A stretch of 59,005 nt of DNA, the filler included. It is 7 parts of 7 records of this genome, joined end to end, with 100 filler letters (N's around TTAATTAATTAA, not from the genome) between each part and the next. Parts side by side here need not be neighbours in the genome. Positions count along the whole stretch, not along the records: positions 1 to 6,795 come from SRR31156797_5782; 6 more parts are not named here. One strand, given 5' to 3'. Under the pieces are notes generated by a model. That model had not been told where the DNA came from, searched no databases, and worked only from the letters and a program-made list of their open reading frames with translations. The first letter of the stretch is position 1. The number at the start of each line of letters is the position of its first letter. Positions 1 through 33,312 of the stretch are shown piece by piece. The position numbers and the translations under genes are program-made.

Positions 1-91
1 AGTTATTCCTAGACAGATGGGTATTTTTTAGTTTTTGCTGATTTAGTTATTCTTATGAAAATAAATTTAATCAGTTTTTTTATTTAGTTTA

Positions 92-130
92 ACAAGAAAA
101 CTTGATTTTCAACAAGTTTTCTTGTATAAT
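92..130 (+). promoter_or_regulatory. sigma70-type promoter overlapped by a perfect 13-bp inverted repeat
   Basis: TTGATT (102-107), 17 bp, TATAAT (125-130); inverted repeat ACAAGAAAACTTG (92-104) / CAAGTTTTCTTGT (113-125). Confidence 0.75.
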
Positions 131-136
131 TTATGC

Positions 137-290
137 ATAAAGATACTTAATTGTGGCAAAAGTTTCGACTTTTTCTATACATGATGGTGGTCTTGCTCAA
201 GCATAAAATAATTACATTAGGTGCCCAGAAACTTTAATTTTGGTGAAAGATTCGTCTTTTACTACAAATGCGGTTTCAGGGCATTTTTAA
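137..290 (+). ncRNA. putative structured small RNA, convergent with the SIR2 gene
   Basis: Lies downstream of the promoter. Two UUCG-capped hairpins (AAAAGT-TTCG-ACTTTT 158-173; TGGTGAAAGA-TTCG-TCTTTTACTA 241-264) whose stems or stem extensions use G-U pairs valid only on the + strand. Outer stem 221-232/273-284 followed by a T run. No ORF in the track. Confidence 0.6.
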
Positions 291-1852
291 GTTTTTTTAT
301 ATTTCAAGAAATCATAAATTTTAATTATTCTTTTTAATTCTGAACGATATTTTGCCTCTTCTAATATTTTGGGGTTATTTTTTAATAATTCATTTAAATA
401 TTTCCCTAAATCGTCTATACTAACTTCCCCTCTCTCTAAATAGACCATCCACCTAAACGCTTGTTTAAATTCAAACTGTGCTAAAATTCCAGGAATTGAT
501 TTGATTTTCATCTTGTTTCTCTCTTTATTTCTATGTTTTTTTATTGTATTACTAAACAAATCATCAAATTCGTTATTTTTTAATTCCATGATTTTCTTAG
601 ATATCGCTCCTGAATATTCCCTCAAATATTTATGAATTGGTAATCCGCCTGAATTTGATTTTAAAAGTTGAGGTATTGTATTTTCAATAATTAATTCTGA
701 TTCAAAATTCTTATCATCAAAAACTATATCTTTATATAATTCTGTAGATGTTATACTATAATATCCTTTTTTACCAAAATCATTCATTACTCCGACACCA
801 ATAACCACTTCAATTTCATTGAAATTTTCAGTTTCCTCAAGCCCAATAACTTTTATTTTTTCATTCGGATTATTAGTTTGAACTAATTCATATATATTTT
901 GCTTCAGAGTTCTCAATATTTTAGGGTTATATTTTGCTTTATTTTCAAGCAACCCTTTATATATTTCAGAAAAATCATTAGTTGTTATTTTAGTCATTTC
1001 AATTCTATTGTTACCAAAATTTTCAGAATGAGTTGAAATTTCATTCTTATGCTCTTCCTTTGTCCATTCGATAAATATTAATCTCTCTTTTAAAATATTT
1101 AATTTGCTTTGACTTAAGCGCTTTGAAATAGATTCAAGAATACTTCTTATGTTCTCATCAGATATTGAATATCCCATAAAAATTATTGGATGTTCCAAAA
1201 AAATAGTTAATAATTTTGCAGTTAAGTATGCACTTTTTTCAGAAAAATCCTTATAATCTTTTGTATTTATAATTATTGATTCAGGTTTTGTACAACAACC
1301 ATGAATTTTATAAATTTCTCCAACCTCATATATATTAGAAAAAATTAATTCTTCTTGTCCTATATAAACTTTATAATCATCAAAAATACTTTCTAATAAT
1401 AGATCATAATTGGTGGTAATTACTCCAGCAATATTTTTTATCGCAGCATTTTTCAGTATTTTTAATTCCTCATTCTCATTAATTAATTTTGCATTCTTAA
1501 AATGTTTTGCCAATGCAAGTTTAAACGGAGAGATACCACTCTTTATTTCTTTTTTATATTTTTCTCTATCTTCAATAAATTTGTCATCCGTTAAAAATTT
1601 TTTCACAAAATCTTTTTCCAACATTTCTGCAATTTTAGGTAGTTTTTTAAACTTATCTTCTTCCATTACTTCATTTTCATATAGTTCATACTGAAATTCA
1701 TTCTCTGTCGCTTCAATAGAAAATTTATTCAATAACCCTGACCAATCTTCAAGGCCATAATATCGTCTTGATATTCCAGAGCCAACAAACAAAAATGGAA
1801 GTGAATCTATTTTTTTCAATTTCTCTAAAAGTTCAGATTTAATTGCACTCAT
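287..1852 (-). CDS. SIR2-like (SIR2_2) domain protein, probable NADase/defence effector
   Basis: Motifs FVGSGIS, ITTNYD, YKIHG, IFMGYSISD; 521 aa with an uncharacterised C-terminal region. Confidence 0.85.
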   Translation of the reverse strand: MSAIKSELLEKLKKIDSLPFLFVGSGISRRYYGLEDWSGLLNKFSIEATENEFQYELYENEVMEEDKFKKLPKIAEMLEKDFVKKFLTDDKFIEDREKYKKEIKSGISPFKLALAKHFKNAKLINENEELKILKNAAIKNIAGVITTNYDLLLESIFDDYKVYIGQEELIFSNIYEVGEIYKIHGCCTKPESIIINTKDYKDFSEKSAYLTAKLLTIFLEHPIIFMGYSISDENIRSILESISKRLSQSKLNILKERLIFIEWTKEEHKNEISTHSENFGNNRIEMTKITTNDFSEIYKGLLENKAKYNPKILRTLKQNIYELVQTNNPNEKIKVIGLEETENFNEIEVVIGVGVMNDFGKKGYYSITSTELYKDIVFDDKNFESELIIENTIPQLLKSNSGGLPIHKYLREYSGAISKKIMELKNNEFDDLFSNTIKKHRNKERNKMKIKSIPGILAQFEFKQAFRWMVYLERGEVSIDDLGKYLNELLKNNPKILEEAKYRSELKRIIKIYDFLKYKKT

Positions 1853-1894
1853 ATTTGATCTCCAATCACAACTCTTATTTTTCTGCCTACATAT

Positions 1895-1922
1895 AGTATA
1901 ACTTTTTTGATTAATTTTTCAA
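1895..1922 (-). promoter_or_regulatory. putative sigma70 promoter of the SIR2 gene
   Basis: TTGAAA-16bp-TATACT on the minus strand, GGAG RBS before the ATG. Confidence 0.5.
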
Positions 1923-1925
1923 ATT

Positions 1926-1960
1926 AAAAGATGATTTCTAATCTTTAGAAATCATCTTTT
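1926..1960. terminator. intrinsic terminator after the kinase genes
   Basis: Perfect 16-bp stem AAAAGATGATTTCTAA/TTAGAAATCATCTTTT, 3-nt loop. Confidence 0.75.
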
Positions 1961-1975
1961 TATTTCACCTTAGTT

Positions 1976-4168
1976 TTATTCCTCCACTAACTTCCTTACA
2001 CAAGCACTAATCTCCGTAGCTGATACAGGTTTTAGCAGATATTCATTAATTATCCCGTTCTTGATATAGCTATCTAGTGGTTCTTCTGGATGAGCTGTCA
2101 TCAGGATTATTTTAATATTCTCATTTTTTATTCTTAGCAGTTTTGATAGCTCTATTCCACTTATCTCAGGCATAGTCAGATCAGTTATCAATATCTCATA
2201 TCCTTCTGATGATAATGTATCAAAATTTTCGAGTATATCATAACCGTTAGTAAATGACTTTGTTTTATAACCTAAACTGTTCATTCCCTTTTTCAGCATC
2301 TTCGCTATAAACTGTTCATTATCAAGTATCAATAATTTCTCAGTTCCTCTTAATTCTATTTGCTCGTTCTTCTCCTGTTTTTTAGTACCACTAACTTCTC
2401 CTGTACTTGCCTGAGGTACAAATACCTCGAAGCGACTTCCTATCCCTAGCTCACTGTTTACCATTATTCTTCCGTCTTGTTTCTCAATTATACCTACAGC
2501 TACACTTAGACCTAGGCCCGTACTGTCTTTAGATAATTTTTCAGTATAAAAAGGATTAAATATTTTCTCCTGAGTTTCTTCACTCATCCCGCAGCCTGTA
2601 TCTTCTATGCTGATTCTGCTGAATATTTTATTATTTTTTCTCTCTATTCTATTCAAGCTTATAGTTAGTTTTTTCTCTTCTGAATTCTGCATCGCATTCA
2701 CTGCATTTTTTACTAAATTTATTATCACCTGATGAAATTGCGTTTCATTTCCAATTATTATATTTTTAGAGTCTTCAATATCAAATTTCAACTCTACATC
2801 TTTCGGAACTAAAGACAGTATCACTTTTTTTATATCGTTCAATATTTTATTCAGTGATAATACTTCATAGTTTACATCACTTCTGTTATCACTGTAGATC
2901 AATATTTGATCTATTATCTCCTGTGATCTTTTAGATGAATCATATATCACTTTTACATCTTCGTGCATCTCACTCTCCGGATCAAGATCACGTAGTATCA
3001 TCTCTGAGTAACCCATTATCGGAGTTAAAATATTATTAAATTCATGGGCTATTCCGCCAGTTAGAGTTCCTATCGTTTCCATCTTTCTCTTATGATGAAG
3101 TTCAGTCTCTTTTTTTCTCAGCATATTAGTATTTTCATTTAATTCATGTAGATATGCACTCTCCATTTGATGTGCTTCTTTATTCTTCATCATTCTGATT
3201 ATCAGGCTTAGAGCCCATGCAAATACTAAAATAATTATAAATGATACTAATAAACTTGCGTAGAAATAATTTTTAATCGGAGCACTTATCTCATCATACG
3301 ACATCACAACTGCTATAACCCAGAATTCATCGCCGATAAATGCAGGTGCAAAACCATTAAGTTTTTTTACTCTTTTTAATTTTTCCTGCGGCCACCAGTA
3401 TGAATAATAGATGTATGTTCCCGGCTCTCCTTTTAGTTGTAATTTAACTAGTTTTTCTACATCAGACAGATCAAGGTCAGGATATCTCTCTTTTCTTGAC
3501 TTTATTACACTGTATCCTATCTGCTCTTTTACGGGATGCATCAATATCAGCCCCGTACTGTCTTTCACCATTGCATAGCCCTGTTCTCCGGCTTTGATTG
3601 GTTTCACCAGCTTATTATATACTTTCTCCAGATCTATCTTTACTAAAATTACTCCCTCTAAATTATTATTTATTAACAAAGGCTGATAAATATATATATA
3701 AAATTTCCCGTTACCATCTTGCCATGGTTTCCCTATATATGGAAGTTTCATTGCACTTACTCTCTTAAAATTTTCATCAAAATTCTTATCTTCCAAAGCA
3801 GTTCTTTTCGCAGGATAAACTATTGCAGTGTTTTTATTTTTGTCTATATACATAATTTCAGATATCTCTTTCTTCTGAGAATTATGAAATAGTCCAAATT
3901 CATTTGCTATAATTTCATTGCTCAAAGTATTGGTTTTAGAAAGAATATTCAGGTTTTCAGCCAGATTGCTCGATTCTTTCAGTTTCTCATCTATATAGAG
4001 CTCCAGACTTTGAGCTGTAGATTTAGCAATTGTAAGTAGATGAGCACTCTGTTGAGACAATATTGTATTTTCATAATCTATAAAACTTTTATAACTGATA
4101 TTTCTGATCATTATTATCATAATTGTAAAAAGCAGTATCAGCCATATTTCAGTTCTTCTTTTTTTCAT
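1976..4168 (-). CDS. hybrid sensor histidine kinase (Cache-HisKA-HATPase-REC)
   Basis: Two TM segments, Cache motif GYAMVKDSTG, H-box GGIAHEFNN, GLGL, receiver TDLTMP. Confidence 0.92.
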   Translation of the reverse strand: MKKRRTEIWLILLFTIMIIMIRNISYKSFIDYENTILSQQSAHLLTIAKSTAQSLELYIDEKLKESSNLAENLNILSKTNTLSNEIIANEFGLFHNSQKKEISEIMYIDKNKNTAIVYPAKRTALEDKNFDENFKRVSAMKLPYIGKPWQDGNGKFYIYIYQPLLINNNLEGVILVKIDLEKVYNKLVKPIKAGEQGYAMVKDSTGLILMHPVKEQIGYSVIKSRKERYPDLDLSDVEKLVKLQLKGEPGTYIYYSYWWPQEKLKRVKKLNGFAPAFIGDEFWVIAVVMSYDEISAPIKNYFYASLLVSFIIILVFAWALSLIIRMMKNKEAHQMESAYLHELNENTNMLRKKETELHHKRKMETIGTLTGGIAHEFNNILTPIMGYSEMILRDLDPESEMHEDVKVIYDSSKRSQEIIDQILIYSDNRSDVNYEVLSLNKILNDIKKVILSLVPKDVELKFDIEDSKNIIIGNETQFHQVIINLVKNAVNAMQNSEEKKLTISLNRIERKNNKIFSRISIEDTGCGMSEETQEKIFNPFYTEKLSKDSTGLGLSVAVGIIEKQDGRIMVNSELGIGSRFEVFVPQASTGEVSGTKKQEKNEQIELRGTEKLLILDNEQFIAKMLKKGMNSLGYKTKSFTNGYDILENFDTLSSEGYEILITDLTMPEISGIELSKLLRIKNENIKIILMTAHPEEPLDSYIKNGIINEYLLKPVSATEISACVRKLVEE

Positions 4169-4208
4169 AACTCTACTCCAATTCTCAAATTCTTAAATTT
4201 ATAGTGAA

Positions 4209-6428
4209 TTAAGTTCTATCCATAACTTTTCGTATTCTTTTACTGATCTTTTCTGCTGATACAGGTTTTAGGATATATTCATCTATTATTTTATCCTGAA
4301 TATACTCTTCTAACGGCTCCTCAGGATTAGCAGTCATAAGTATAATTTTGATTTCCGGTTTATTTCTTCTAAATTTTTTAGCCAGCTGTATACCGCTTAC
4401 TTCCGGCATACTTATATCACTTATCACTACATCAATTTTATCTTTTAATACATTGAACTCTCTCACTACTTCAGCCCCGTCTGTGTATGTTGTTATTTTA
4501 TACCCCAGCTCTTCCAGACTTTTCTTCAGCATCTCTGCTATTGAGCCCTGATCATCAACTATCAGCACTCTTTCATCACCATGCTGTGTTAATTCACTTT
4601 CCAGTTTATCCGTTTCTACTTTTCTATCTGATTTAGGTAAATATATATCGAATCTGCTTCCTTTTCCAGGTGCACTCTCTACATATATTCTTCCTCCGTG
4701 TTTTGATATTATCCCCATTACAACTGACAGACCAAGTCCCGTTGTTGAGTCAGATTGAGTTTTGCTAAAGAAAGGATCATATATTTTCTCAAGTGTTTCT
4801 CTGTCCATCCCTATTCCGGTATCAATTACACTTAACCTGATATATTTTTTCTCTTCAAGTCCGCTCTCTTTTAACCTGCTGTCATCACTATACTCTACCG
4901 TTTGAAGATCAATTTCAAGTTTTCCTCCACCCTCTTTCATCGAATTATATGCATTTATACATAGGTTTAAAATAACCTGATGAAGCTGGGTTTCGTTTGC
5001 AAATACATTCCCGCTGTTTTTTGATATTTTTTTTATGATTTTTATATTAGAGGGAGTCGTTGCTTCAAAGAATTTAAGTGCATTCTCCAGAACTTTTTTC
5101 ATCTCCAGAACTTCATATCGAAGCATTACATTTTTATCACGACTGAATAACAGTATTTGATCTATTACATCTCTTGCTCTTTTCGATGAATCATTTATTA
5201 TTTTCATTTCATCATATATCTCATCTTCAGCTTTCAGCCCCATTAATATCATCTCCGAGTAACCCATTATCGGAGTCAGTATATTATTAAATTCATGGGC
5301 TATTCCACCTGTTAAAGTTCCTATTGTTTCCAATTTTCTCTTTTGATGAAGTTCAGCATCTTTTCTTCGCAAGTTTTCACTGGACTCATTTATCTCTTTT
5401 AGATAGTTCATCTCTATTCTGTGCGCTTCTTTACTGCTTGCCATTCTTATTATCATAAATAGCGCAAAGGAAATCACAGAGATGAGCGTGGCGGCGACTG
5501 TGCTTATGTTATACAGGTATTTTCTAATTGCACCATGTATCTCCTCATATGACATCGTTACTGCAACTATCCAGAATTTTCTGGTGATATTTATCGAAGT
5601 AAATGCCTGAAACTTTTTAACTTTAACAAGTTTTTCCTGAGGCCACCAATATGAATGATAGATATGAGTTCCCTCTTGACCGCTTAACTGCAATTTTACT
5701 AATTCTTCAAGCTCACTATAATCTAATTCAGGATATTTCTGTTTTCTATCTACAAGTACGTCATAACCTATCTGCTCTTTTGCCGGATGCATGATTATTA
5801 TTCCGTCACTGTCTTTTACCATTGCATAACCAAATTTTCCGGCTTTTACAGGTTTTACCAAGAGATCATACATATCATTTACATCTATTCTTACTACTAT
5901 TGCTCCTATAATGATTTTATCTCTAAATACCGGTTTAAAAATATCAAATGCATAAGCCTTCTCATCAATTTTATATACTTCACCGATAAATGTTTCTTCC
6001 AGCATTTTATTTACTCTCATTGCGTCTATAAATTCATTTTTAGTTTTAAATGAAACTATTTCATCTGAATCAATTGGATAGATTAAATGATTCTTACTTT
6101 CAAAATCAATATATTGCAAACTAGAGATTTGATCACCATGAGATTCACTAAATGCCTCCAATCTTTTTAGAAGAAATTTATATTCTCCATAATTAATCAA
6201 ATCTGACTTTATATTTTCACTTAAATAGTTTATTCCTTTTATTTTCTCCTCAACAAAATTTAAAATACTTCTTCCCACTAATCTTGATATGGTAAGAAGC
6301 TGCTCCTGCTGTTGAGATACAATTCTCTTTTCATAGTTTAAGAAACTTCTTCTGCTTATTTCACCTATAACAATAGATATAAGTCCTACTAAAATTACAA
6401 ATAGTATTTTTAATCTTTTTTTATTCAT
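4209..6428 (-). CDS. hybrid sensor histidine kinase (Cache-HisKA-HATPase-REC), paralog of its neighbour
   Basis: Same architecture: GGIAHEFNN, DTGIGM, SDISMP; GGAG RBS before the ATG at 6428. Confidence 0.92.
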   Translation of the reverse strand: MNKKRLKILFVILVGLISIVIGEISRRSFLNYEKRIVSQQQEQLLTISRLVGRSILNFVEEKIKGINYLSENIKSDLINYGEYKFLLKRLEAFSESHGDQISSLQYIDFESKNHLIYPIDSDEIVSFKTKNEFIDAMRVNKMLEETFIGEVYKIDEKAYAFDIFKPVFRDKIIIGAIVVRIDVNDMYDLLVKPVKAGKFGYAMVKDSDGIIIMHPAKEQIGYDVLVDRKQKYPELDYSELEELVKLQLSGQEGTHIYHSYWWPQEKLVKVKKFQAFTSINITRKFWIVAVTMSYEEIHGAIRKYLYNISTVAATLISVISFALFMIIRMASSKEAHRIEMNYLKEINESSENLRRKDAELHQKRKLETIGTLTGGIAHEFNNILTPIMGYSEMILMGLKAEDEIYDEMKIINDSSKRARDVIDQILLFSRDKNVMLRYEVLEMKKVLENALKFFEATTPSNIKIIKKISKNSGNVFANETQLHQVILNLCINAYNSMKEGGGKLEIDLQTVEYSDDSRLKESGLEEKKYIRLSVIDTGIGMDRETLEKIYDPFFSKTQSDSTTGLGLSVVMGIISKHGGRIYVESAPGKGSRFDIYLPKSDRKVETDKLESELTQHGDERVLIVDDQGSIAEMLKKSLEELGYKITTYTDGAEVVREFNVLKDKIDVVISDISMPEVSGIQLAKKFRRNKPEIKIILMTANPEEPLEEYIQDKIIDEYILKPVSAEKISKRIRKVMDRT

Positions 6429-6795
6429 TTTATCTTCTCCAAAAATCAAATTATAAATCAATTATCAAAAACTTATAAAACACAGTCTAGTTATATTATA
6501 CAATAAAAGTTAATTTTTCCGAAAACATAAAAGCTTCCTATTTTTTAAAATTTTTTAAGATTTAAGAAAACACATGCATTTTTTTAAATTATATAGTAAA
6601 ATGTAAGTATTAAATTTTATTTGTATTATTTTTTGACATAAGAGCTTTGTATAATACTTATTTATTAAAATTTTTTATAGAAAGCTCCAAAATAGTAAAC
6701 TAGCTATAAAAAATAACATCTTATTAAAAACTTGCATGAATTTAAGTGAAATTATTTAATTTCTCAATCAACAACCCACGCCGCAAGCGAACGGG

Positions 6796-6895
6796 NNNNN
6801 NNNNNNNNNNNNNNNNNNNNNNNNNNNNNNNNNNNNNNNTTAATTAATTAANNNNNNNNNNNNNNNNNNNNNNNNNNNNNNNNNNNNNNNNNNNN
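6796..6895. other. artificial contig linker
   Basis: N44-TTAATTAATTAA-N44 (stops in all frames); GC content shifts across it. Confidence 0.98.
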
Positions 6896-7835
6896 CATAG
6901 TTGATCACATGGGAAACCCGGGTGATATCAATGCCTCTGGCGGCAATATCCGTGGCCACCAGGATTTGGAAGGTCCCGTCGCGAAAGCCTTCCAAGGCGG
7001 CTTGCCTGCGCCCCTGGGAGAGATTCCCCTGAAGGGAGGCACATGGATATCCGGCCGAAACCAGCTTTCTACCGAGGCTTTTGGCCCGGTATTTGGTCCG
7101 GGTGAAGACCAGCACCGATTTGACCACGGTATCACCCAGAAGCTTTAAGAGCAGCGCCGTTTTCAAATGGTGGGGTACCGGATAGAGCGCATGGCGCACT
7201 GTTTCCGCGGGGGCCACGGCCCCAATCTGGACCATGCTGGGATTTATCAGGATATCGCCCGCCATTCGACGTATTTCAGGCGGCATGGTGGCGGAAAAAA
7301 GCAGTGTCTGCCGTTTTTTGGGAAGACGCGCCAGAATGCGCCGGATATCGGGCAGAAACCCCATGTCGAACATCTGGTCCGCCTCATCAACGACCAGCAT
7401 TTCCAACCGGGAAAAATTGACGGTGCCGCGGTTCATATGATCCAGCAGACGGCCCGGGCAGGCCACCACAATATGGGCATGTTTCAGGTTTTCGATCTGC
7501 GGGTGAATTCCCACGCCCCCGTAGACCGTTACACTTTTGAGATGGGTTTCGCGACCCAGCATTTCAATGGCCTGATGGATCTGCTCCGCCAGTTCACGGG
7601 TCGGCGCCATGATCAAAGCGCGAACGCCCTTCGACTTTTTCGCCATGAGCCGATGGAGTATGGGCAGCGCAAAGGCAGCCGTTTTACCGGTGCCGGTCTG
7701 GGCCACGCCCATGATATCGTGATGGTCGAGGACCTCGGGAATTGCACGGGCCTGAATGGGTGTGGGCTCAACATATCCCGCCGCCATGACCCCCGCCGCA
7801 ACACGGGGATGAAAATTAAACGTCTTGAAATTCAA
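6896..7835 (-). CDS. DEAD-box RNA helicase, RhlE-like (3' truncated by contig end)
   Basis: Q motif PTPIQ, AQTGTGKT, PTRELA, DEAD, SAT, ARGID; TTG start with RBS. Confidence 0.93.
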
Positions 7836-7862
7836 AAAAACACCTTCTTCCTATGTTCCCAT

Positions 7863-7892
7863 AAAAAAAGCCCCGAAACCATTCCGGGGCTT
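7863..7892 (-). terminator. intrinsic terminator-like hairpin in the helicase 5' leader
   Basis: Minus strand reads AAGCCCCGGAA-TGGT-TTCGGGGC followed by T7. Confidence 0.7.
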
Positions 7893-7936
7893 ACGTGATT
7901 TGTAGTTACAACCAGGAACATCATTTAATGACGGTA

Positions 7937-7965
7937 AATTTACACATTATGATTAGCAAAGTCAA
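7937..7965 (-). promoter_or_regulatory. putative promoter of the helicase leader
   Basis: TTGACT-17bp-TAAATT with an extended TG. Confidence 0.5.
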
Positions 7966-8074
7966 TTCATTTTAAAAATAAAATTTAAGCGATTTAATTT
8001 TACATTTGTTTTACAAACGTTCCATTCAATTTTGTGTATTCTGAATTATACTAAATTAAATGTTTAAATAAATT

Positions 8075-8179
8075 TTGATGCATTCGTAAAAAGTCAAAAA
8101 ACCGAAATTCGCACCTAATGATTTCAGTGGGTTATCGGTGCTAAAATGGCCGAAATTGGGCTTTTTACGAGACCATCAA
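8075..8179. mobile_element. MITE-like element with terminal inverted repeats
   Basis: TTGATGcatTCGTAAAAAG ... CTTTTTACGAgacCATCAA imperfect TIRs, ~105 bp, no ORF. Confidence 0.6.
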
Positions 8180-8214
8180 TTTTGACCAAAAAAAATCAAA
8201 AGATTGGAGACTAA

Positions 8215-9888
8215 ATGAAATTATTACTGACGTCTGTATTCGGCCCCTATGGGGTAGATGACGCATATGGCAGAAAAGAAAATAAAATGGAGCTGTTTCA
8301 CAATCAGGTCACCCGGGAGCAGGGAATTTTTTCCTACCGATTCAATCACGGAAGCCAGGGGCTCTATTTTCTGGCGGAAAACATCGACATGCCCACAGCG
8401 GTGCTTGATTTTCCAACCCTCAAGCGATTTAAGAAGGAGTTGAAAAAGGGATATGACTACATCGGCATCAGCTTTATCATTCCCAATTTCAAGAAGGCCA
8501 AAGAGATGGCCCGCCTCATTCGTGAATTATCGCCCAAAAGCAAGATCATTCTGGGCGGACACGGCGTTAACATCCCCAGCATCGAATCGCTCATGGACTA
8601 TGATTACCGATGCAAAGGGGAGGGCGTCTATTTCTTGAGGGAACTTTTCGGGGAAAAGATGGGCACCCCCATTCGGCATCCCCTTGAATACAGTTCCTTC
8701 AACCGACAGGTCATGGGGGCCCCCTGGCCATCGGATTCCGGGATTCTCATTACGGGCGTGGGATGCGCCAACAAATGCCGTTTTTGCGCCACATCGCACT
8801 TCTTCGGAAAGTATGTCCCTTATCTCAAAACCGGCCGGGACATTTTCGACGTCTGCTGCCGCTACGAAGATGAGATGGGCATCACGGATTTCGGGGTGCT
8901 GGATGAAAACTTTCTAAAGATTAAGGATCGTGCACTGGAACTATTGGAACTGATGGAAACCCACGATCGCCACTTCAATTTCGCCATTTTCAGCTCTGCT
9001 GAAACCCTCAAGGAGATCGGTGACCTGGATATTCTCGTGCGCATGGGGATAACGTTTGTGTGGGTGGGCGTTGAATCGAAACGGGAAATCTATCTGAAAA
9101 ACAAAAATACGGATTTTTCTATTCTTTTTAAGGAATTAAAGAAACGGGGCGTCAGTGTCCTCGCGTCATTGATTCTATTCAGCGAAAAACACGATAAAAA
9201 GACCATTTGGGAGGATGTGGACTTTGTCACGTCGCTAGATCCTGATTATGTGCAATTTTCTCCGCTGGGCCCTATCCCGGGAACAAAGCTCTACGATGAT
9301 TATGAGAAACAGGGAAAATTAGTCAAAGATGTCCCTTATGAATCCCAGCACGGTCAGGGGAAAATATGGTTTCATCATGATCATTTTTCGAGAGATGAAT
9401 CGGAAGCGTTTTTGCGTCTTGCATTTGATACGGACTATATCAGAAACGGCGCTTCCATGCTGCGCGTCATAAAAACCACTTTGGCCGGTTATCAATATTG
9501 CAGCAGCCATTCCGACCGGAGGGTGAAAAGCCGTTTACCGTATTTCCAAAAAAGACTCAACATGACGCGATATTTTCTCCCGGCCTCAACCTTCTTTGCG
9601 CAAAACCGGCGAAGCAAAACCCTGCTGATGGAAATCAAGAAAGCTTATCGTCTGGAATTCGGGAGGATGAATCTAAGAACGTTGGTGCCGTCACTGGCTG
9701 TTCTTTTCTTCAGCATGAAAGAATATCTGCGGTGTCGCATCATCAGTGATGTGAGAATACCCAAAACATACTATCACCGGCAGTATAAGGTTTCCACGCA
9801 GAAGAACCGATCGGCCAAAACCCTTTTTGCCAATGAGGTAATCCCAAAGATCCGCTACCGACTGGCCGAACAACCCGAGCGGTCATGA
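8215..9888 (+). CDS. radical SAM protein with B12-binding-like N-terminal domain
   Basis: CxxxCxxC (CANKCRFC); N-terminal IGISF...IILGGHG; DENF motif. Confidence 0.88.
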   Translation: MKLLLTSVFGPYGVDDAYGRKENKMELFHNQVTREQGIFSYRFNHGSQGLYFLAENIDMPTAVLDFPTLKRFKKELKKGYDYIGISFIIPNFKKAKEMARLIRELSPKSKIILGGHGVNIPSIESLMDYDYRCKGEGVYFLRELFGEKMGTPIRHPLEYSSFNRQVMGAPWPSDSGILITGVGCANKCRFCATSHFFGKYVPYLKTGRDIFDVCCRYEDEMGITDFGVLDENFLKIKDRALELLELMETHDRHFNFAIFSSAETLKEIGDLDILVRMGITFVWVGVESKREIYLKNKNTDFSILFKELKKRGVSVLASLILFSEKHDKKTIWEDVDFVTSLDPDYVQFSPLGPIPGTKLYDDYEKQGKLVKDVPYESQHGQGKIWFHHDHFSRDESEAFLRLAFDTDYIRNGASMLRVIKTTLAGYQYCSSHSDRRVKSRLPYFQKRLNMTRYFLPASTFFAQNRRSKTLLMEIKKAYRLEFGRMNLRTLVPSLAVLFFSMKEYLRCRIISDVRIPKTYYHRQYKVSTQKNRSAKTLFANEVIPKIRYRLAEQPERS

Positions 9889-28836: not shown

Positions 28837-31800
28837 ATGCTGCATATTCGATTTAAAATATTACTTCAGTTTTTTTTATTTTTTTGTATATTTTTAGGAT
28901 CGCTAGAAGCAAAAGAGTTAGAAAAAGTATCCTTACAGCTTCATTGGAAATTTCAGTTTGAATTTGCAGGTTTTATTGCTGCAAAAGAGAAAGGGTTTTA
29001 TAAAGAGGCTGGTTTTGATGTAACTTTAAAACCAAAAGAAAGAGGAATGGATATCTTAGAGGAATTAGTGGAGGGAAAATCAACTTTTGCTATTTCTGAT
29101 GATGGCTGCTTTATAGATGCAGCTGAGGGTAATGATATCAAGATCATTGCTAATTATTACAAACAATCTCCCCATATCTTAGTAGCTCAACAAAATATTT
29201 ACTCCCCTTATGATCTTACGGGAAAAACCATAATGACCTCAAAAGATACTTTGCAAAAAGGGAATATCAAAAGTATGATGACAAAGCTTGGTATCGATAC
29301 TTCAAAAATAAAAGTTGTCCCTCATACTTTTAATCTAGAGGCATTTATCAATAATGAGATCGATGCTATGACAGTGTATACTATTGATCAAATTTATGAG
29401 TTAAATCAGGCAAAAAAACCATTTACTATTTTTAATCCAGTCACTTATGGGATCTCTTCTAGTGCGATAAATCTAGTGACCATTGGAAAAGAGTTATATG
29501 ATAAACCAAGGATCGATCGTTTTGTAGAAGCATCTAATAAAGGATGGGAGTATGCTTTAAAGCATAAACAAGAGATTGTAGATATCATCTATGAAAAATA
29601 TTCACAACATAAAACAAAACCAGCTCTTTTACATGAAGCGGATCAAGTAGAAAGGTTGATGCTCCCAAATCTTTTTCCAATAGGAAGTATTGATAGGGAT
29701 CTTTTTAAAAGAGAGATTGCCAATATGAAACTTGATAAAAGTCTTCCAGAAGATTTTGATTTTGAAAAAATGGTATATGAAAAACAAAAGCTAGAAACTG
29801 ATCCAAATATCCAATTAAGCGAGCAAGAAAAAGCTTGGATCAAAGATCATCCAGTGATACATGTGGGTGGAGAGATGGATTGGGTTCCATTTGACTTTGT
29901 AAATGATAATAAAAAATATGATGGTCTAGCAAAAGATTATCTTGATCTAATTGCACAAAAAGGGGGCTTTGAAGTTCAGTATCATACTGGAAAAACTTGG
30001 AGTGAACTTTTAGAGGCCATCAAAAACAAAGAGATCGATCTTTTACCTGCTTTAAATTTTAGTGAAGCAAGGGCAGAGTTTATAAACTATACCCATTCTT
30101 ATTTAAAACTTCCAGAATATTATTTCACCCGCTCTTCTTCTGAAAAGATAAAAGGGATCAATGAGCTGTATGGAAAATCATTGGCTATTGTAAAAGGGTT
30201 TGCTATTAATGGATGGCTTAAGGAAAATCACCCGCAGATAAAATTAAATGAAAAAAGTAGTATTCTAGAAGCTTTACGATCAGTAAAATCTGAGGAGAGT
30301 TTTGCCTTTATTTGTGATAATCCATCTACAACCTATCATCTTGAAAATAACTTTATCACAGGGATAAAACTCAATAATATTGTTGAAACAAGAGCTCCCG
30401 TGAAACTTTATATGGGAGTCAAAAAAGGGTATGAACCTTTAGTTGGGATCATTAATAAAACACTTCAATCTATAAAAAAAGAGGATATTTCTAAGATCTC
30501 ATCAAAATGGATGAATGCTATTGAAAAAGAAACAGTCATTGTTAATCTTACCCAAGAAGAGAAAAACTGGATCAAAGAAAATGTTATCAAGGTTGGTGTT
30601 GAGGATTGGGCTCCTATTATTTTTCCTTTAGAAGAGAGTCATGATATAGGGGGTATCTCTGGAGCTATCTTTAAGTTATTAGTCCAAAGGACAGGACTTC
30701 AAGTTGATTATGTATCAGGATTTTGGGATGATCTTTTACAAAAGTTTAAAAAGAAACAAATTGATCTACTTCCTGATACTTATTATAGTAAAGAAAGAGA
30801 GAAATATGGTGTGTTTTCTCAAGGCTATATGAAACTTCTTGATGCTATTTATGTGAAAGAAACAGATAATCATATCTATTCTTTTCAAGATTTAAATAAT
30901 AAAAAGCTCGCTCTTGTAAAAGATACAGGGATGGCTGAGCGGATAAAAGAAAACTTTCCAAATATCGAAATCCTAGAAACAAAAAATCTGCTTGATGCTA
31001 TTTATGTAGTAACCAATGGGAGAGCAGATGCATTATATGATGGACAAGTGGCAGTACGTTATACTTTAAAAGAAAATGTGATCTCAGGATTAAAAGAGAT
31101 ACCACAAACCTATTTTAAAGCACTTGATCTACACCTTTTTAGTCAAATGGATCAACCTATCTTACAATCGATCTTACAAAAAGGGCTACAAAGTATTTCC
31201 TATCAAGAGATACAAGATATTAGATCACAATGGGTTGATCAACTCGATCGAATCAAATTAAACAAACAAGAGCAAGAGTGGCTTGATGAAAATAGAGAGA
31301 TAAAATATGTATATGATGCTAATTGGCAGCCATTTGAGTGGAAAAATGAACTTGGAGAACATACTGGTATTATTTATGATATCCTTTCTTTAATAAGTGA
31401 GAAAAGTGGGATTGTTTTTCAACAGGTACCAACTAATAGTTGGGATGAAGCTTTTGAACTTGTAAAAAATAAAAAAGTTGATATGTTTAGTGGAATTGCC
31501 CAAACAGATGAGAGAAAAGAGTATTTACAGTTTTCTCAAAAAGTGATCTTTAATATCCCTTATGTATTTGTTTCAAGAGTTGATGATCCAAATGACTATC
31601 TTGAAACATTTAAAGTGATAGAAAATAAAAGTGTAGGTGTTGTTTCAGGATATGGGATAGAGGAATTATTAGAGGAGAAACAGCCAAATCTTCCTTTATT
31701 TAAAGTACAGACTATTGATGAGGGGTTTTCAAAAGTAAAAGATAAAACTTTAGATATTTTTGTAGTCAATGCAGCAACAGCAAAATATTATATCAATAAA

Positions 31801-33312
31801 AAAGGGTATGATGATCTTAAGATCGTGACAAAAACAGAATTTAATCTTGATTTGAAAGTGGCATTTCATCAAGGTTTTTCCCCTGTGGCAATAGATATTA
31901 TAGATCGAGCAATTGGTGCGATCACTCAAAAAGAGCTATCCAATATTTATTTTAAATGGACAGAAGTAAGAGTTGAGACCACTATCAATTGGAAGTTGAT
32001 CTATCAGATATCTGCTGGACTTTTAATTATTGTAGTTATTATTGCTTATTGGAATAGAAAACTAAAATCATTGGTAGATCAAAAAACAGGTGAGATAAAA
32101 CTTTTATTAAAGGCTTTTGATAAAAATGTTATCGCTAGTAAGACTGATAAGAATGGGGTGATAACCTATGTAAGTGAAAAGTTTTGTAAGATCAGTGGAT
32201 ATAAAAAAGAGGAGTTACTAGGTAAAACTCACACTATTATCAAACATCCAGATATGTCAAAAGAGATTTTTGAAGATATGTGGAATACTATCAAAGCCAA
32301 TAGAGTCTGGACTGGAGAAGTGAAAAATCGTAAAAAAGATGGTGGGTTTTACTGGACAGATATGGTTATAACTCCTGAGTATGATACCAAAGGGATATTA
32401 AGTGGATATAGTGCAATACGTCAAGATATTACAGCGCAAAAAGAGGTTGAAGAGCTTAGTAGAACCCTTGAACAAAAAGTAGAAAGACGTACAAAAGAGT
32501 TAAATGATCAGAAAAAGCAGATAGAAGCTATCCATAAACATACACGAGAATCAATAGAGTATGCTTCTTTGATCCAAGGTGCATTGATTCCAGAAAAAGG
32601 GGTATTTGATCAGTTCTTTGAAGATTATTTTACACTTTGGCAACCAAAAGATATTGTTGGTGGAGATATCTATTTGATGCATAAAGTAAATGATGATGAG
32701 ATTGTTTTAATGGTTATTGATTGTACTGGACATGGAGTTCCAGGAGCTTTTGTAACAATGCTAGTAAAAGCAGTTGAGAGACAAATTATGTCAATTGTCA
32801 ATACAAATGAAACAAACTTTAGTCCAGCAGATACCTTAAGTGTTTTTAATCAAAGTATTAAACATCTTTTAAAACAAGAAAATTTAGATTCTGTATCAAA
32901 TGCAGGCTTTGATGGGGGAATTATCTATTATAATAGAAAGGAAAACCTTATTAAATTTGCAGGAGCAGAAACCCCTTTATTTTATATAGATAAAGAGCAA
33001 AAATTTCACACTATAAAAGGAAGCCGTCACTCAGTAGGATATAAAAAAAGTGATCCAGCATATCAGTTTAAAGAGCATACCATTGAGGTTGAAAAAGGGA
33101 TGCTTTTTTATCTTTCAACAGATGGGTTTTTAGATCAAAATGGTGGAGAGAAAAGCTTCCCATTTGGTAAAAAAAGATTTCAAAAGCTTATTGAAAAATA
33201 TAAAGATAAGTCTTTAGAGACTCAAAAAGAGTTTTTCCTAGAAGAGTTGTCTCAGTATCAAGGGAATAATGAGAGAAATGATGATGTTACTATGATAGGG
33301 ATCAAGGTATAA
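28837..33312 (+). CDS. multi-sensor PP2C phosphatase: NMT1/THI5 + 3x SBP_bac_3 + TM + PAS + SpoIIE
   Basis: LQLHWKFQFEFAGF; three WxPF/PI repeats; PAS NRKKDGGFYW; VGGD, DCTGHGVPGA, TDG, DDVT. Confidence 0.9.
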   Translation: MLHIRFKILLQFFLFFCIFLGSLEAKELEKVSLQLHWKFQFEFAGFIAAKEKGFYKEAGFDVTLKPKERGMDILEELVEGKSTFAISDDGCFIDAAEGNDIKIIANYYKQSPHILVAQQNIYSPYDLTGKTIMTSKDTLQKGNIKSMMTKLGIDTSKIKVVPHTFNLEAFINNEIDAMTVYTIDQIYELNQAKKPFTIFNPVTYGISSSAINLVTIGKELYDKPRIDRFVEASNKGWEYALKHKQEIVDIIYEKYSQHKTKPALLHEADQVERLMLPNLFPIGSIDRDLFKREIANMKLDKSLPEDFDFEKMVYEKQKLETDPNIQLSEQEKAWIKDHPVIHVGGEMDWVPFDFVNDNKKYDGLAKDYLDLIAQKGGFEVQYHTGKTWSELLEAIKNKEIDLLPALNFSEARAEFINYTHSYLKLPEYYFTRSSSEKIKGINELYGKSLAIVKGFAINGWLKENHPQIKLNEKSSILEALRSVKSEESFAFICDNPSTTYHLENNFITGIKLNNIVETRAPVKLYMGVKKGYEPLVGIINKTLQSIKKEDISKISSKWMNAIEKETVIVNLTQEEKNWIKENVIKVGVEDWAPIIFPLEESHDIGGISGAIFKLLVQRTGLQVDYVSGFWDDLLQKFKKKQIDLLPDTYYSKEREKYGVFSQGYMKLLDAIYVKETDNHIYSFQDLNNKKLALVKDTGMAERIKENFPNIEILETKNLLDAIYVVTNGRADALYDGQVAVRYTLKENVISGLKEIPQTYFKALDLHLFSQMDQPILQSILQKGLQSISYQEIQDIRSQWVDQLDRIKLNKQEQEWLDENREIKYVYDANWQPFEWKNELGEHTGIIYDILSLISEKSGIVFQQVPTNSWDEAFELVKNKKVDMFSGIAQTDERKEYLQFSQKVIFNIPYVFVSRVDDPNDYLETFKVIENKSVGVVSGYGIEELLEEKQPNLPLFKVQTIDEGFSKVKDKTLDIFVVNAATAKYYINKKGYDDLKIVTKTEFNLDLKVAFHQGFSPVAIDIIDRAIGAITQKELSNIYFKWTEVRVETTINWKLIYQISAGLLIIVVIIAYWNRKLKSLVDQKTGEIKLLLKAFDKNVIASKTDKNGVITYVSEKFCKISGYKKEELLGKTHTIIKHPDMSKEIFEDMWNTIKANRVWTGEVKNRKKDGGFYWTDMVITPEYDTKGILSGYSAIRQDITAQKEVEELSRTLEQKVERRTKELNDQKKQIEAIHKHTRESIEYASLIQGALIPEKGVFDQFFEDYFTLWQPKDIVGGDIYLMHKVNDDEIVLMVIDCTGHGVPGAFVTMLVKAVERQIMSIVNTNETNFSPADTLSVFNQSIKHLLKQENLDSVSNAGFDGGIIYYNRKENLIKFAGAETPLFYIDKEQKFHTIKGSRHSVGYKKSDPAYQFKEHTIEVEKGMLFYLSTDGFLDQNGGEKSFPFGKKRFQKLIEKYKDKSLETQKEFFLEELSQYQGNNERNDDVTMIGIKV

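Follow-up and report, generated by a model that had tools for sequence, protein, structure and literature searches.

A structured two-module RNA gene convergent with PDC-S25-type SIR2 genes: a candidate RNA-controlled NADase module

SIR2 NADases are among the commonest anti-phage effectors, and their control has, to our knowledge, hitherto been attributed to protein sensors, signalling nucleotides or Argonaute guides. Short pAgo-SIR2 systems are reported to take their guides from transcripts. ThsA, DSR2, KomC and Avs5 have an N-terminal fold in common with the SIR2 protein described here, including invariant Asn- and His-bearing motifs, but this protein carries none of the SLOG, HEAT-like, STAND or APAZ domains that distinguish ThsA, DSR2, SIR2-HerA, SPARSA, Avs5 and KomC, and its partner appears to be an RNA. 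It is a full-length match to the profile of PDC-S25, a PADLOC candidate, and the neighbourhoods are defensive (type I restriction-modification [R-M] operons, prophage contigs); PDC-S25 is catalogued as a single gene, whereas here a conserved non-coding RNA gene lies alongside. Type I pairs of Bacillus subtilis such as txpA/RatA and bsrG/SR4, explained by RNase III cleavage or mRNA destabilisation, are convergent antisense pairs with 3' overlap and an RNA that has its own promoter, an arrangement that may apply here too; their toxins, however, are small hydrophobic peptides, not a 521-aa enzyme, and the present RNA has a conserved covarying module outside the overlap.

Two kinds of RNA-controlled system are also close. 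AvcID, called a type III toxin-antitoxin defence system (PMC10511110), likewise joins a metabolite-depleting enzyme to a dedicated small RNA, AvcI, which was shown experimentally to bind and inhibit the deaminase AvcD and to be lost upon transcription shut-off. Its enzyme is a deoxycytidylate deaminase rather than a SIR2 NADase, the RNAs are unrelated, and in the SIR2 pair the RNA gene is convergent, with a terminator that is probably shared. ToxIN, CptIN, TenpIN and AbiQ similarly set a protein effector beside a structured RNA of repeated units in an abortive-infection setting; their toxins are endoribonucleases that process their own arrays of near-identical repeats, whereas here a SIR2 enzyme accompanies two diverged modules, and the classical type III RNA gene precedes its toxin gene on one strand rather than following it in convergent orientation. 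The likeness to ToxIN and AbiQ proposed in an initial annotation of this DNA survives as an analogy only: the adjacent dedicated RNA agrees, while toxin fold, repeat array and gene order do not.

The window, by which we mean the whole stretch of DNA analysed (59,005 nucleotides), contains the following elements of the SIR2 gene:

287-1852, minus strand: SIR2 gene, 521 aa; Pfam SIR2_2 and full-length PADLOC PDC-S25 match
1895-1922, minus strand: predicted SIR2-gene promoter (TTGAAA, 16 nt, TATACT), a consensus match only

The ORF length and the SIR2_2 assignment made earlier were confirmed, the domain spanning residues 144-265 (Pfam, 7e-24, 84.9 bits vs a cut-off of 24.5), and PDC-S25 profile PDLC04968 aligned to residues 2-519 over profile positions 9-515 of 517 (E 4.3e-165). 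An N-terminal SIR2 NADase-type domain, which matched the structures of ThsA, DSR2, KomC and Avs5 in Foldseek (E ~1e-9), is followed by a helical C-terminal domain (~365-521). Across 23 SIR2 sequences N148, D150 and H184 are invariant and the TTNYD motif is likewise kept; we take these motifs to hold the catalytic Asn/His positions. By domain, fold and motifs, the protein is a predicted defence-type NADase. The C-terminal domain searched alone gave no Foldseek match at E <= 0.001, and hence no solved relative, and the protein atlas returned only SIR2-family clusters, all below 0.9; no recognisable RNA-binding fold emerged from either search. Membership of two described groups was considered and rejected: (i) Thoeris, as the C-terminal SLOG/STALD domain and the TIR protein ThsB were not found (no C-terminal structural match and no recurrent TIR neighbour in 50 loci), ThsA profiles aligning only to residues 113-306; and (ii) SIR2-HerA, short pAgo-SIR2 and DSR2, as the protein has 521 aa vs ~1000 aa with a HEAT-like C-terminus, and neither HerA nor Argonaute recurred in the same 50 loci.

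Convergent with this gene, tail-to-tail, runs a predicted RNA gene whose terminator abuts the SIR2 stop codon:

92-125, no strand assigned: perfect 13-bp inverted repeat with an 8-nt loop, holding the -35 box and abutting the -10 box; terminator-like in the promoter/terminator scan
102-130, plus strand: predicted sigma-70-type promoter of the RNA gene, TTGATT (102-107), 17-nt spacer, TATAAT (125-130), 10/12 matches
137-298, plus strand: predicted non-coding RNA, ~155-160 nt, two related modules and an intrinsic terminator (fold z, model R1 match)
141-193, plus strand: module 1 (pair counts of alignment A5)
141-146/187-193, plus strand: closing helix of module 1, G190 bulged
147-151/182-186, plus strand: internal loop of module 1
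152-153/180-181, plus strand: further pairs of module 1, with a UA bulge at 178-179
154-177, plus strand: hairpin 1 of module 1, UUCG loop 164-167, core stem 158-163/168-173, wobble G155-U176
194-220, plus strand: inter-module linker, differing in sequence and length among relatives
221-284, plus strand: module 2, probably doubling as terminator (window fold; the homologous module covaries in relatives)
221-232/273-284, plus strand: outer stem of module 2, one A-A mismatch, wobble G221-U284
241-264, plus strand: inner hairpin of module 2 (hairpin 2), UUCG loop 251-254, wobbles G242-U263 and G245-U260
285-298, plus strand: U-rich terminator tail, U-runs 285-289 and 292-298, overlapping the final SIR2 codons and the complement of their stop codon (287-289)

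The initial annotation had described the near-consensus promoter, the two UUCG hairpins with a long-range stem and U-rich tail, and an end at the SIR2 stop codon, and each was recovered at the coordinates it gave. Since hairpin 1 has an additional closing helix, the RNA can be viewed as two similar modules. The fold of 136-300 has z = -4.47 on the plus strand (0/200 shuffles as stable) and z = -2.47 on the minus strand. The RNA is predicted to start near A137. Because the window holds 16 promoter-like sites vs 16.7 expected in shuffles, the promoter match by itself is no better than chance, and its weight comes only from its conserved position: an equivalent lies 3-14 nt ahead of the first helix in 18/31 homologue loci, as against 1.8% of random positions. 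The comparison shows the RNA to be an independent transcription unit with its own predicted promoter and terminator. The inverted repeat at 92-125, an addition to the initial annotation, is missing from the closest relative (locus L112); it may serve as an operator or terminate a gene that lies outside the window, ahead of its first base.

To survey relatives, genome contigs were searched with protein alignment A1 (the single window protein as query retrieved none), and the best 80 of 578 genome loci and the best 80 of 221 viral loci were compared with two covariance models, R1 for the Lachnospiraceae-type and R2 for the Geobacter-type RNA. Among those 80 genome loci, R1 matched directly after the SIR2 stop and on the opposite strand in 40, and R2 contributed 22 more (62/80 for the two models); a third RNA class with the same two-module fold plan accounted for 8 additional loci, and 9/80 were assessed by eye alone or not at all. 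The viral-contig set, which is independent, had R1 or R2 at the equivalent site in 29 of its best 80 loci. R1 also matched loci L085 and L112 and the window, the last weakly (140-292, 24 bits, E ~0.2 in a 400-kb search), so that the window's membership rests on the bridging loci L112 and L001, which show the architecture of its RNA. Where genome loci had enough flank, no intact SIR2 gene clearly devoid of a structured element was seen, with L036 as a possible exception. The module-1 pattern was matched in four of five genomes probed, as a single copy in each, and in 2/401 Lachnospiraceae genomes, with SIR2 adjacent both times; E. coli genomes searched by blastn with a proteobacterial locus gave no match. 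MAGs from at least five groups carry the pairing (Bacillota, Actinomycetota, Desulfobacterota-type, Verrucomicrobiota/Lentisphaerota-type and Fusobacteriota), as do (pro)phage contigs, and this comparison shows the predicted RNA to be co-inherited with PDC-S25-type SIR2 across them. Since the pairing recurs beside relatives in several phyla, the supposed one-gene candidate looks like a protein-plus-RNA system.

The RNA itself is, as judged from sequence and predicted structure, a new family absent from Rfam 15, with at least three sequence classes. Rfam 15 gave a best E of 0.72 for window positions 1-2400, no match for the whole window at the gathering threshold and none for ten homologue loci at E <= 0.1, and ARAGORN found no tRNA or tmRNA. 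We found no description of the RNA/SIR2 pairing in literature text searches either, although the supplements of the PADLOC papers and of a large gut-microbiome RNA-motif screen (PMC8040213) may list the motif.

Covariation supports the predicted fold. As the window's module 2 came out misaligned with the Lachnospiraceae type in MAFFT, module 1 was analysed separately and a model-based alignment was used. In the module-1 alignment that includes the window (A5), both sides change in 8/19 pairs, the helices are 94-98% paired, and the covariation score was reached by 0/500 shuffles; compensatory changes affect 27/43 pairs of the class C RNA and 14/31 pairs of class V. The wobble G17-U38 is conserved in 15/16 sequences of the module-1 alignment and three G-U pairs in 14/14 sequences of the class C alignment, and such conserved wobbles suit only the strand opposite SIR2 in the predicted structures. 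Folding energy is lower on that strand in 49/52 loci (median z: -3.9 there, -2.1 on the SIR2 strand, -0.26 in a coding control), and the RNA classes track the SIR2 clades in the protein tree. A box C/D or k-turn (UGAU/UGAU internal loop) was dropped as a defining feature, since the Collinsella and Atopobium RNAs have Watson-Crick pairs there; 17% of cells in this segment of the module-1 alignment are paired. Thus the test fixed beforehand, a conserved and covarying structure downstream of homologues, found one whose position and strand are conserved and which tracks SIR2 phylogeny across phyla. In line with the initial annotation, which did not recognise the pairing as described, neither Rfam nor the text searches yielded a description of it. 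The RNA as cognate partner of SIR2 is, on the strength of conserved position, strand, covariation and shared phylogeny, well supported; the role given to it in that annotation, as regulator, antitoxin or sensor, is a proposal.

Two readings in which the RNA has no role as such fare poorly against these data. The element could be no more than an intricate terminator working in both directions, or a 3' structure belonging to the SIR2 cassette, with no function in trans, the promoter and module 1 being incidental; module 2 as a terminator for both genes, and the abundance of promoter-like hexamers in AT-rich DNA, would accord with this. Nevertheless, module 1 covaries and is conserved across phyla, the promoter position is ~30-fold enriched over background, the structure prefers the strand opposite SIR2, and RNA and promoter outlast SIR2 deletion, which together make the reading very unlikely. 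The idea that the element acts as DNA, as an integron attC-like folded single-strand recombination site that moves the cassette into type I R-M operons and prophages, has in its favour a site directly after the stop codon, strand-specific structure conserved above sequence, and a cassette that occurs in many genomic contexts; it is hardly credible, since no integron integrase recurs among the neighbours in 50 loci, two hairpins with a U-tract and an upstream promoter differ from one long imperfect hairpin, the invariant G-U pairs would be weak G-T mismatches as DNA, and no attC core sites were seen by eye.

A closer competitor is cis-antisense control of the type I kind, in which pairing would lead to RNase III cleavage or destabilisation of the SIR2 mRNA. 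Module 2 is plausibly a bidirectional terminator as well, so that part of its conservation needs no function in trans and an antisense mechanism becomes possible: if its hairpin is shared, the 3' ends of the RNA and the SIR2 mRNA would be fully complementary over ~55-65 nt. The overlap of the U-tail with the SIR2 stop codon is found in homologue loci as in the window, the convergent layout is invariant in every RNA class seen, and class C has an A-run before the stem, so that the SIR2 strand likewise reads a stem and U-run. The genes themselves share a few bases at the stop codon, and a longer overlap would depend on the SIR2 mRNA end. Against this mechanism, no part is better conserved than module 1, although it lies outside the shared terminator, and Lachnospiraceae and Collinsella loci have the base of its hairpin and the UA bulge in identical form; the G-U wobbles and compensatory changes point to selection on the RNA's own fold, which simple antisense does not need; and the toxin would be a large enzyme rather than a small membrane peptide. 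Pairing between the RNA and the SIR2 5' region was tried and counted as no evidence: the mean energy is -31.6 kcal/mol for cognate pairs vs -30.0 kcal/mol, the cognate ranked first in 1/33 with ranks otherwise scattered, and composition confounds the permutation p of 0.023. We consider cis-antisense control unlikely.

The cassette occurs in varied contexts, including type I R-M operons and prophage contigs, and the only recurrent neighbours in 50 loci are type I R-M subunits (13, 9 and 8 loci); the initial annotation had seen no protein partner next to the gene, and none is conserved across these loci. The pair decays asymmetrically, a point in favour of the antitoxin-like module preferred below: of 38 informative metagenome loci, 24 have a truncated or deleted SIR2 but retain RNA, promoter and terminator. 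Orphan RNAs beside deleted SIR2 genes keep 96% identity vs 76% at third codon positions of the neighbouring gene. An RNA acting solely as a cis-antitoxin would be expected to decay once its toxin is gone, so this conservation counts against such a role and points to either a function beyond the adjacent gene or a cassette that has spread recently. Relaxed selection on orphan RNAs was also considered, as 7 sites that never vary among 19 intact loci do so in degraded ones; the signal is ambiguous, because all degraded loci so changed belong to one lineage and the orphan RNA is highly conserved overall.

Orphan conservation bears, too, on the opposite sign of control, i.e., that the RNA acts as a positive cofactor, or senses infection, within a SIR2 ribonucleoprotein whose triggering turns the NADase on, either because a phage factor binds, cleaves or modifies the RNA or because the RNA scaffolds SIR2 assembly. 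In its favour, the partnership is an obligate and conserved one in which RNA classes follow protein clades, a two-module RNA might link two protomers (SIR2 proteins of related defence systems are oligomers or filaments according to the titles of structure entries), and orphan RNAs stay conserved without SIR2. If activity required the RNA, however, loss of either gene should be tolerated equally, and only SIR2 loss with the RNA kept was seen; nor do we know of a SIR2 enzyme that is switched on by a structured RNA of its own. On balance, positive control seems improbable.

The reading we prefer, tentatively and at a probability of roughly 0.45, is that SIR2 and the RNA gene facing it make up a single two-component module in which the RNA keeps the NADase off. 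By analogy with AvcI and AvcD, an antitoxin-like RNA restraining the enzyme is the most likely mechanism. The RNA would bind the SIR2 protein, with the helical C-terminal domain, for which no relative is known, as the candidate docking site, and hold the NADase off in the manner of an RNA antitoxin; when a phage halts transcription in the host or breaks down its RNA, the pool of this RNA would drop, and the freed SIR2 would deplete NAD+ so that the infection aborts. Two further observations weigh against the antitoxin reading: (i) the proposed docking domain has no recognisable RNA-binding fold, and (ii) RNA antitoxins are expected to be labile, while UUCG loops and long helices make this RNA look stable.

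A broader proposal, possible but doubtful, is that PDC-S25 represents a widespread immune module of ribonucleoprotein type, where the dedicated two-module RNA, and not a protein domain, gates or senses for the SIR2 NADase. Infection could then be signalled by a stop in transcription, by an RNase or RNA-binding protein of the phage, or even by a ligand derived from NAD, the last being suggested by a tandem-domain RNA design beside an NAD-consuming enzyme, and orphan RNAs could persist as protection from incoming SIR2 cassettes. If true, this would amount to a new RNA family and a new control of NAD-depletion immunity in at least five phyla and in prophages.

To conclude, the RNA lies beyond the SIR2 stop codon on the other strand and PDC-S25 is listed as a single gene, so constructs limited to the ORF would omit it, which could explain toxicity or an absent phenotype. 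With at least three RNA sequence classes, the family supplies ready material for covariation analysis, and the hypothesis it offers is open to direct test. If SIR2 does have a dedicated RNA partner that covaries, NAD-depletion immunity would gain RNA-based gating, and the AvcID-type logic of an enzyme toxin held by a small RNA would reach a second, much larger effector family.

The initial annotation had described a promoter, two UUCG hairpins, a long-range stem and U-runs at the stop codon of the SIR2 gene, all of which were recovered. A further helix closes hairpin 1, so that the window RNA (137-298, + strand) consists of two similar modules, module 1 (141-193) and module 2 (221-284), the latter doubling as terminator.

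Features of the SIR2 gene and the adjoining RNA unit in the window
92-125: perfect 13-bp inverted repeat with 8-nt loop, wrapping the -35 box and ending at the -10 box
102-130, + strand: promoter TTGATT-17-TATAAT, downstream of the SIR2 stop
141-146/187-193, + strand: closing helix of hairpin 1, an addition to the earlier description
154-177, + strand: hairpin 1, UUCG
241-264, + strand: hairpin 2, UUCG, enclosed by the stem 221-232/273-284
287-289: stop codon of the - strand SIR2 gene, overlapped by the U-runs of the + strand
287-1852, - strand: SIR2 gene, 521 aa, SIR2_2 domain (Pfam E 7e-24)

Folding of 136-300 gave z = -4.47 on the + strand and z = -2.47 on the - strand. The inverted repeat, which might act as an operator or terminate a gene lying left of the window, is absent in the closest relative, metagenome locus L112. 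No tRNA or tmRNA was found by search, and the Rfam search proposed in the initial annotation returned no known family (Rfam 15; window RNA and homologue loci). Full-text searches returned no paper in which a SIR2 defence gene is paired with an RNA of its own; "SIR2" is absent from the main text of the papers on bacterial RNA-motif discovery that they listed, and the thousands of unnamed motifs in their supplements (e.g., PMC8040213) might include this RNA.

A conserved, covarying structure is present downstream of SIR2 homologues on the opposite strand, as covariance models and pair counts demonstrate. One genome per species was scanned with an alignment as query, which yielded 578 SIR2 relatives; the best 80 loci were kept. 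By blastn of window positions 1-300, a common 14-nt word was found in six Clostridia loci, about 90-115 nt past the SIR2 stop and on the opposite strand, beside SIR2 proteins only 43-46% identical to that of the window. These loci share with the window (i) the flanks of hairpin 1, the hairpin stem itself being different, (ii) a second related module, (iii) a terminator with its tail overlapping the SIR2 stop codon, and (iv) a TTGAxx-17-TATAxT promoter that ends 6-7 nt ahead of the first helix. The module-1 pattern was single-copy in the four genomes with a match (five probed), occurred in 2 of 401 Lachnospiraceae genomes, adjoining SIR2 in both, and matched 97 stretches of metagenome contigs, 42 with the conserved upstream context; the others seem to be fortuitous, as the pattern is gapped. 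L112, one of the 42, encodes a SIR2 protein 73% identical to the window's, has exactly the window's RNA architecture, and shows two compensatory pair changes in hairpin 1 (A-U to G-C and G-C to A-U).

Covariance model R1, based on 13 Lachnospiraceae-type RNAs and a structure drawn by hand, matched 40 of the best 80 of 578 genome loci (10 Clostridia/Negativicutes and 30 Coriobacteriia-type), as well as L085, L112 and the window (140-292), in every case directly past SIR2 on the opposite strand. The window RNA itself scored weakly (24 bits, E about 0.2), and its membership therefore rests on two intermediates, L112 and L001, a Fusobacteriaceae MAG locus whose module 1 aligns with that of the window. 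Model R2 (14 Geobacter-type and related RNAs) added 22 loci, bringing the total to 62 of these 80, and a third RNA class with the same plan was found in eight Verrucomicrobiota/Lentisphaerota-type loci. Two hairpins and a terminator were recognized by eye in six of the other nine loci (L016, L018, L019, L025, L026 and L030), while L032 showed nothing by eye, L036 was ambiguous and L069 ended within the gene. A search of IMG/VR contigs found 221 SIR2 relatives, and in an independent set of 80 of these viral loci (L189-L268), 29 had an R1 or R2 match in the same place; the models span two RNA classes only, so that the other 51 do not count as negatives. Many of the 221 viral relatives lie within 5 kb of either end of their contig, which fits defence cargo at prophage ends. 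Bacillus anthracis pXO2 (L188, record 80213-85796) carries a more distantly related SIR2 family gene of 541 aa alongside a site-specific integrase; the 147-nt spacer downstream of this SIR2 gene contains a simple terminator hairpin, no more than one stretch similar to a single window-RNA module, and no match to R2.

In the module-1 alignment (16 sequences, the window among them), pairing reaches 94% and 98% in the two helices, and both partners change in 8 of 19 pairs; the covariation score was attained by 0 of 500 shuffles, and pairing fell from 77% to 32-56% when the partners were slid. The 4x4 internal loop (UGAU/UGAU in Firmicutes) lacks conservation in that form, only 17% of its cells being paired. 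RNAalifold gave 43 pairs, 27 of them compensatory, for the Geobacter-type class C, and 14 of 31 pairs are compensatory in class V (Verrucomicrobiota/Lentisphaerota-type); the model-fitted alignment A4 reached 98% pairing, with double changes in 18 of 30 pairs, but is biased to the model and contains two spurious rows. Conserved G-U wobbles (15 of 16 sequences for module 1; three pairs at 14/14 in class C) favour the strand opposite SIR2, since they would become C-A mismatches on the SIR2 strand; the initial annotation had read the wobbles of the window in the same way. Over the 155 nt past SIR2, folding energy was lower on the opposite strand in 49 of 52 non-redundant loci (median z of -3.9, versus -2.1 on the SIR2 strand and -0.26 in a coding-region control). 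In 18 of 31 loci a promoter-like site ended 3-14 nt ahead of the first helix, compared with 112 of 6200 random positions, and a CTTGAAT -35 box conserved in several class C loci falls just beyond this distance. Given the covariation, wobbles, strand bias of folding and promoter placement, the element is a structured RNA, predicted from sequence to be transcribed from the strand opposite SIR2; a passive terminator and a DNA-level recombination site both fit poorly. The main rival to the antitoxin-like mode of action proposed below is antisense control of SIR2, since module 2 could plausibly act as a bidirectional terminator, leaving the 3' end of SIR2 mRNA complementary to it; however, module 1, the most conserved part, lies outside this overlap, and no specific pairing of the RNA with the SIR2 5' region was found.

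The RNA classes track the SIR2 protein tree (FastTree, midpoint root, 53 sequences), in which one clade unites the window, L112, L001, L152, Coriobacteriia and Clostridia, with class A/W RNA in common, and class C RNAs fall to a separate clade. Since the flanks past the promoter are unrelated from locus to locus, RNA and SIR2 move as a unit. Conservation of position and strand, covariation and this tracking strongly indicate, by comparison, that the RNA is the cognate partner of the window SIR2, as initially proposed. The sole recurrent protein neighbours in 50 loci were type I R-M subunits (HsdS 13, HsdR 9 and HsdM 8), and none of these loci had a TIR, HerA or Argonaute partner, in line with the earlier observation in the window. 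The cassette often lies within type I R-M operons, preceded by hsdM and hsdS and followed by hsdR (L002, L003, L005, L007, L008, L011, L015, L018, L021, L023, L029, L031 and others); L112 also has an hsdM-like gene (2700-2999). Directly upstream of the window SIR2 are two tandem hybrid sensor kinases (1976-6461, - strand; 730 and 750 aa; dCache, HisKA, HATPase and receiver domains), which are not conserved neighbours in homologue loci. Comparing 1-2000 with 2001-9000, G+C is 24-27% in the SIR2-RNA stretch, 30-38% in the histidine-kinase genes alongside and 49-57% at 7001-8000, a patchiness that fits acquired DNA. Elsewhere in the window, 28837-33312 (+ strand) encodes a 1491-aa protein with NMT1/SBP_bac_3 solute-binding, PAS and SpoIIE-type phosphatase domains.

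Among the 42 true metagenome loci, SIR2 is intact in 14, fragmentary in 12 (149, 67, 120 and 85 aa and a 373-aa chimera) and wholly lost in 12, where the RNA abuts a TIM-barrel gene; four were uninformative. Most degraded loci represent one gut locus beside the TIM-barrel gene (L086, L093, L095, L101, L102, L107, L110, L113, L120, L129, L153, L154, L156, L161 and L170) in three deletion states, a 149/67-aa remnant, an 8-codon remnant and complete loss, with spacings of 643, 216 and 87 nt; L121, L139 and L159 stand apart from it. The L159 chimera (1225-2343 of the oriented copy) carries SIR2 residues about 336-519 behind an unrelated N-terminal part that has signal-peptide-like features, next to an intact RNA. 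Promoter and terminator of the RNA were kept in every degraded case, and loss of SIR2 with retention of the RNA is the asymmetry expected of a toxin-antitoxin pair. The pattern is not a tidy one, however: identity of orphan RNA and promoter stays at 96-97% in pairs of loci where third codon positions of the neighbouring gene are 76% and the upstream flank 57% identical, reflecting either continued selection on the orphan RNA or recent spread of the cassette. Degraded loci do show a few substitutions at RNA positions invariant in 19 intact loci.

The window SIR2 protein matches the PADLOC phage-defence candidate PDC-S25, catalogued as a single SIR2 gene, from end to end (E 4e-165), has no NCBIfam model, and belongs to a family of 2443 proteins from many phyla (E <= 0.001; 7999 candidates scored). 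Its N-terminal fold (AlphaFold, mean pLDDT 80) matches ThsA, DSR2, KomC/HAM-SIR2 and Avs5 (E about 1e-9), and T146-D150 and H184 are invariant in the protein alignment. The C-terminal domain (residues about 365-521; window 290-760, - strand) is modelled as helical, with pLDDT mostly above 85 (79 when modelled alone), and stands out as the candidate domain for RNA docking or sensing; searched alone, it had no PDB match in Foldseek at E <= 0.001 (best E 1.6) and no lead in a protein atlas.

The mode of action that we favour, and infer, is that of an antitoxin-like RNA, which would bind SIR2 and would be lost upon phage-induced transcription shut-off; the RNA may instead serve SIR2 as a cofactor or sensor. 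According to PMC10511110, the sRNA AvcI binds and inhibits the nucleotide-depleting enzyme AvcD and vanishes after rifampicin or phage infection; AvcI/AvcD, as presented there, offers a precedent for the proposed RNA-SIR2 mechanism, with an sRNA holding a nucleotide-depleting enzyme.
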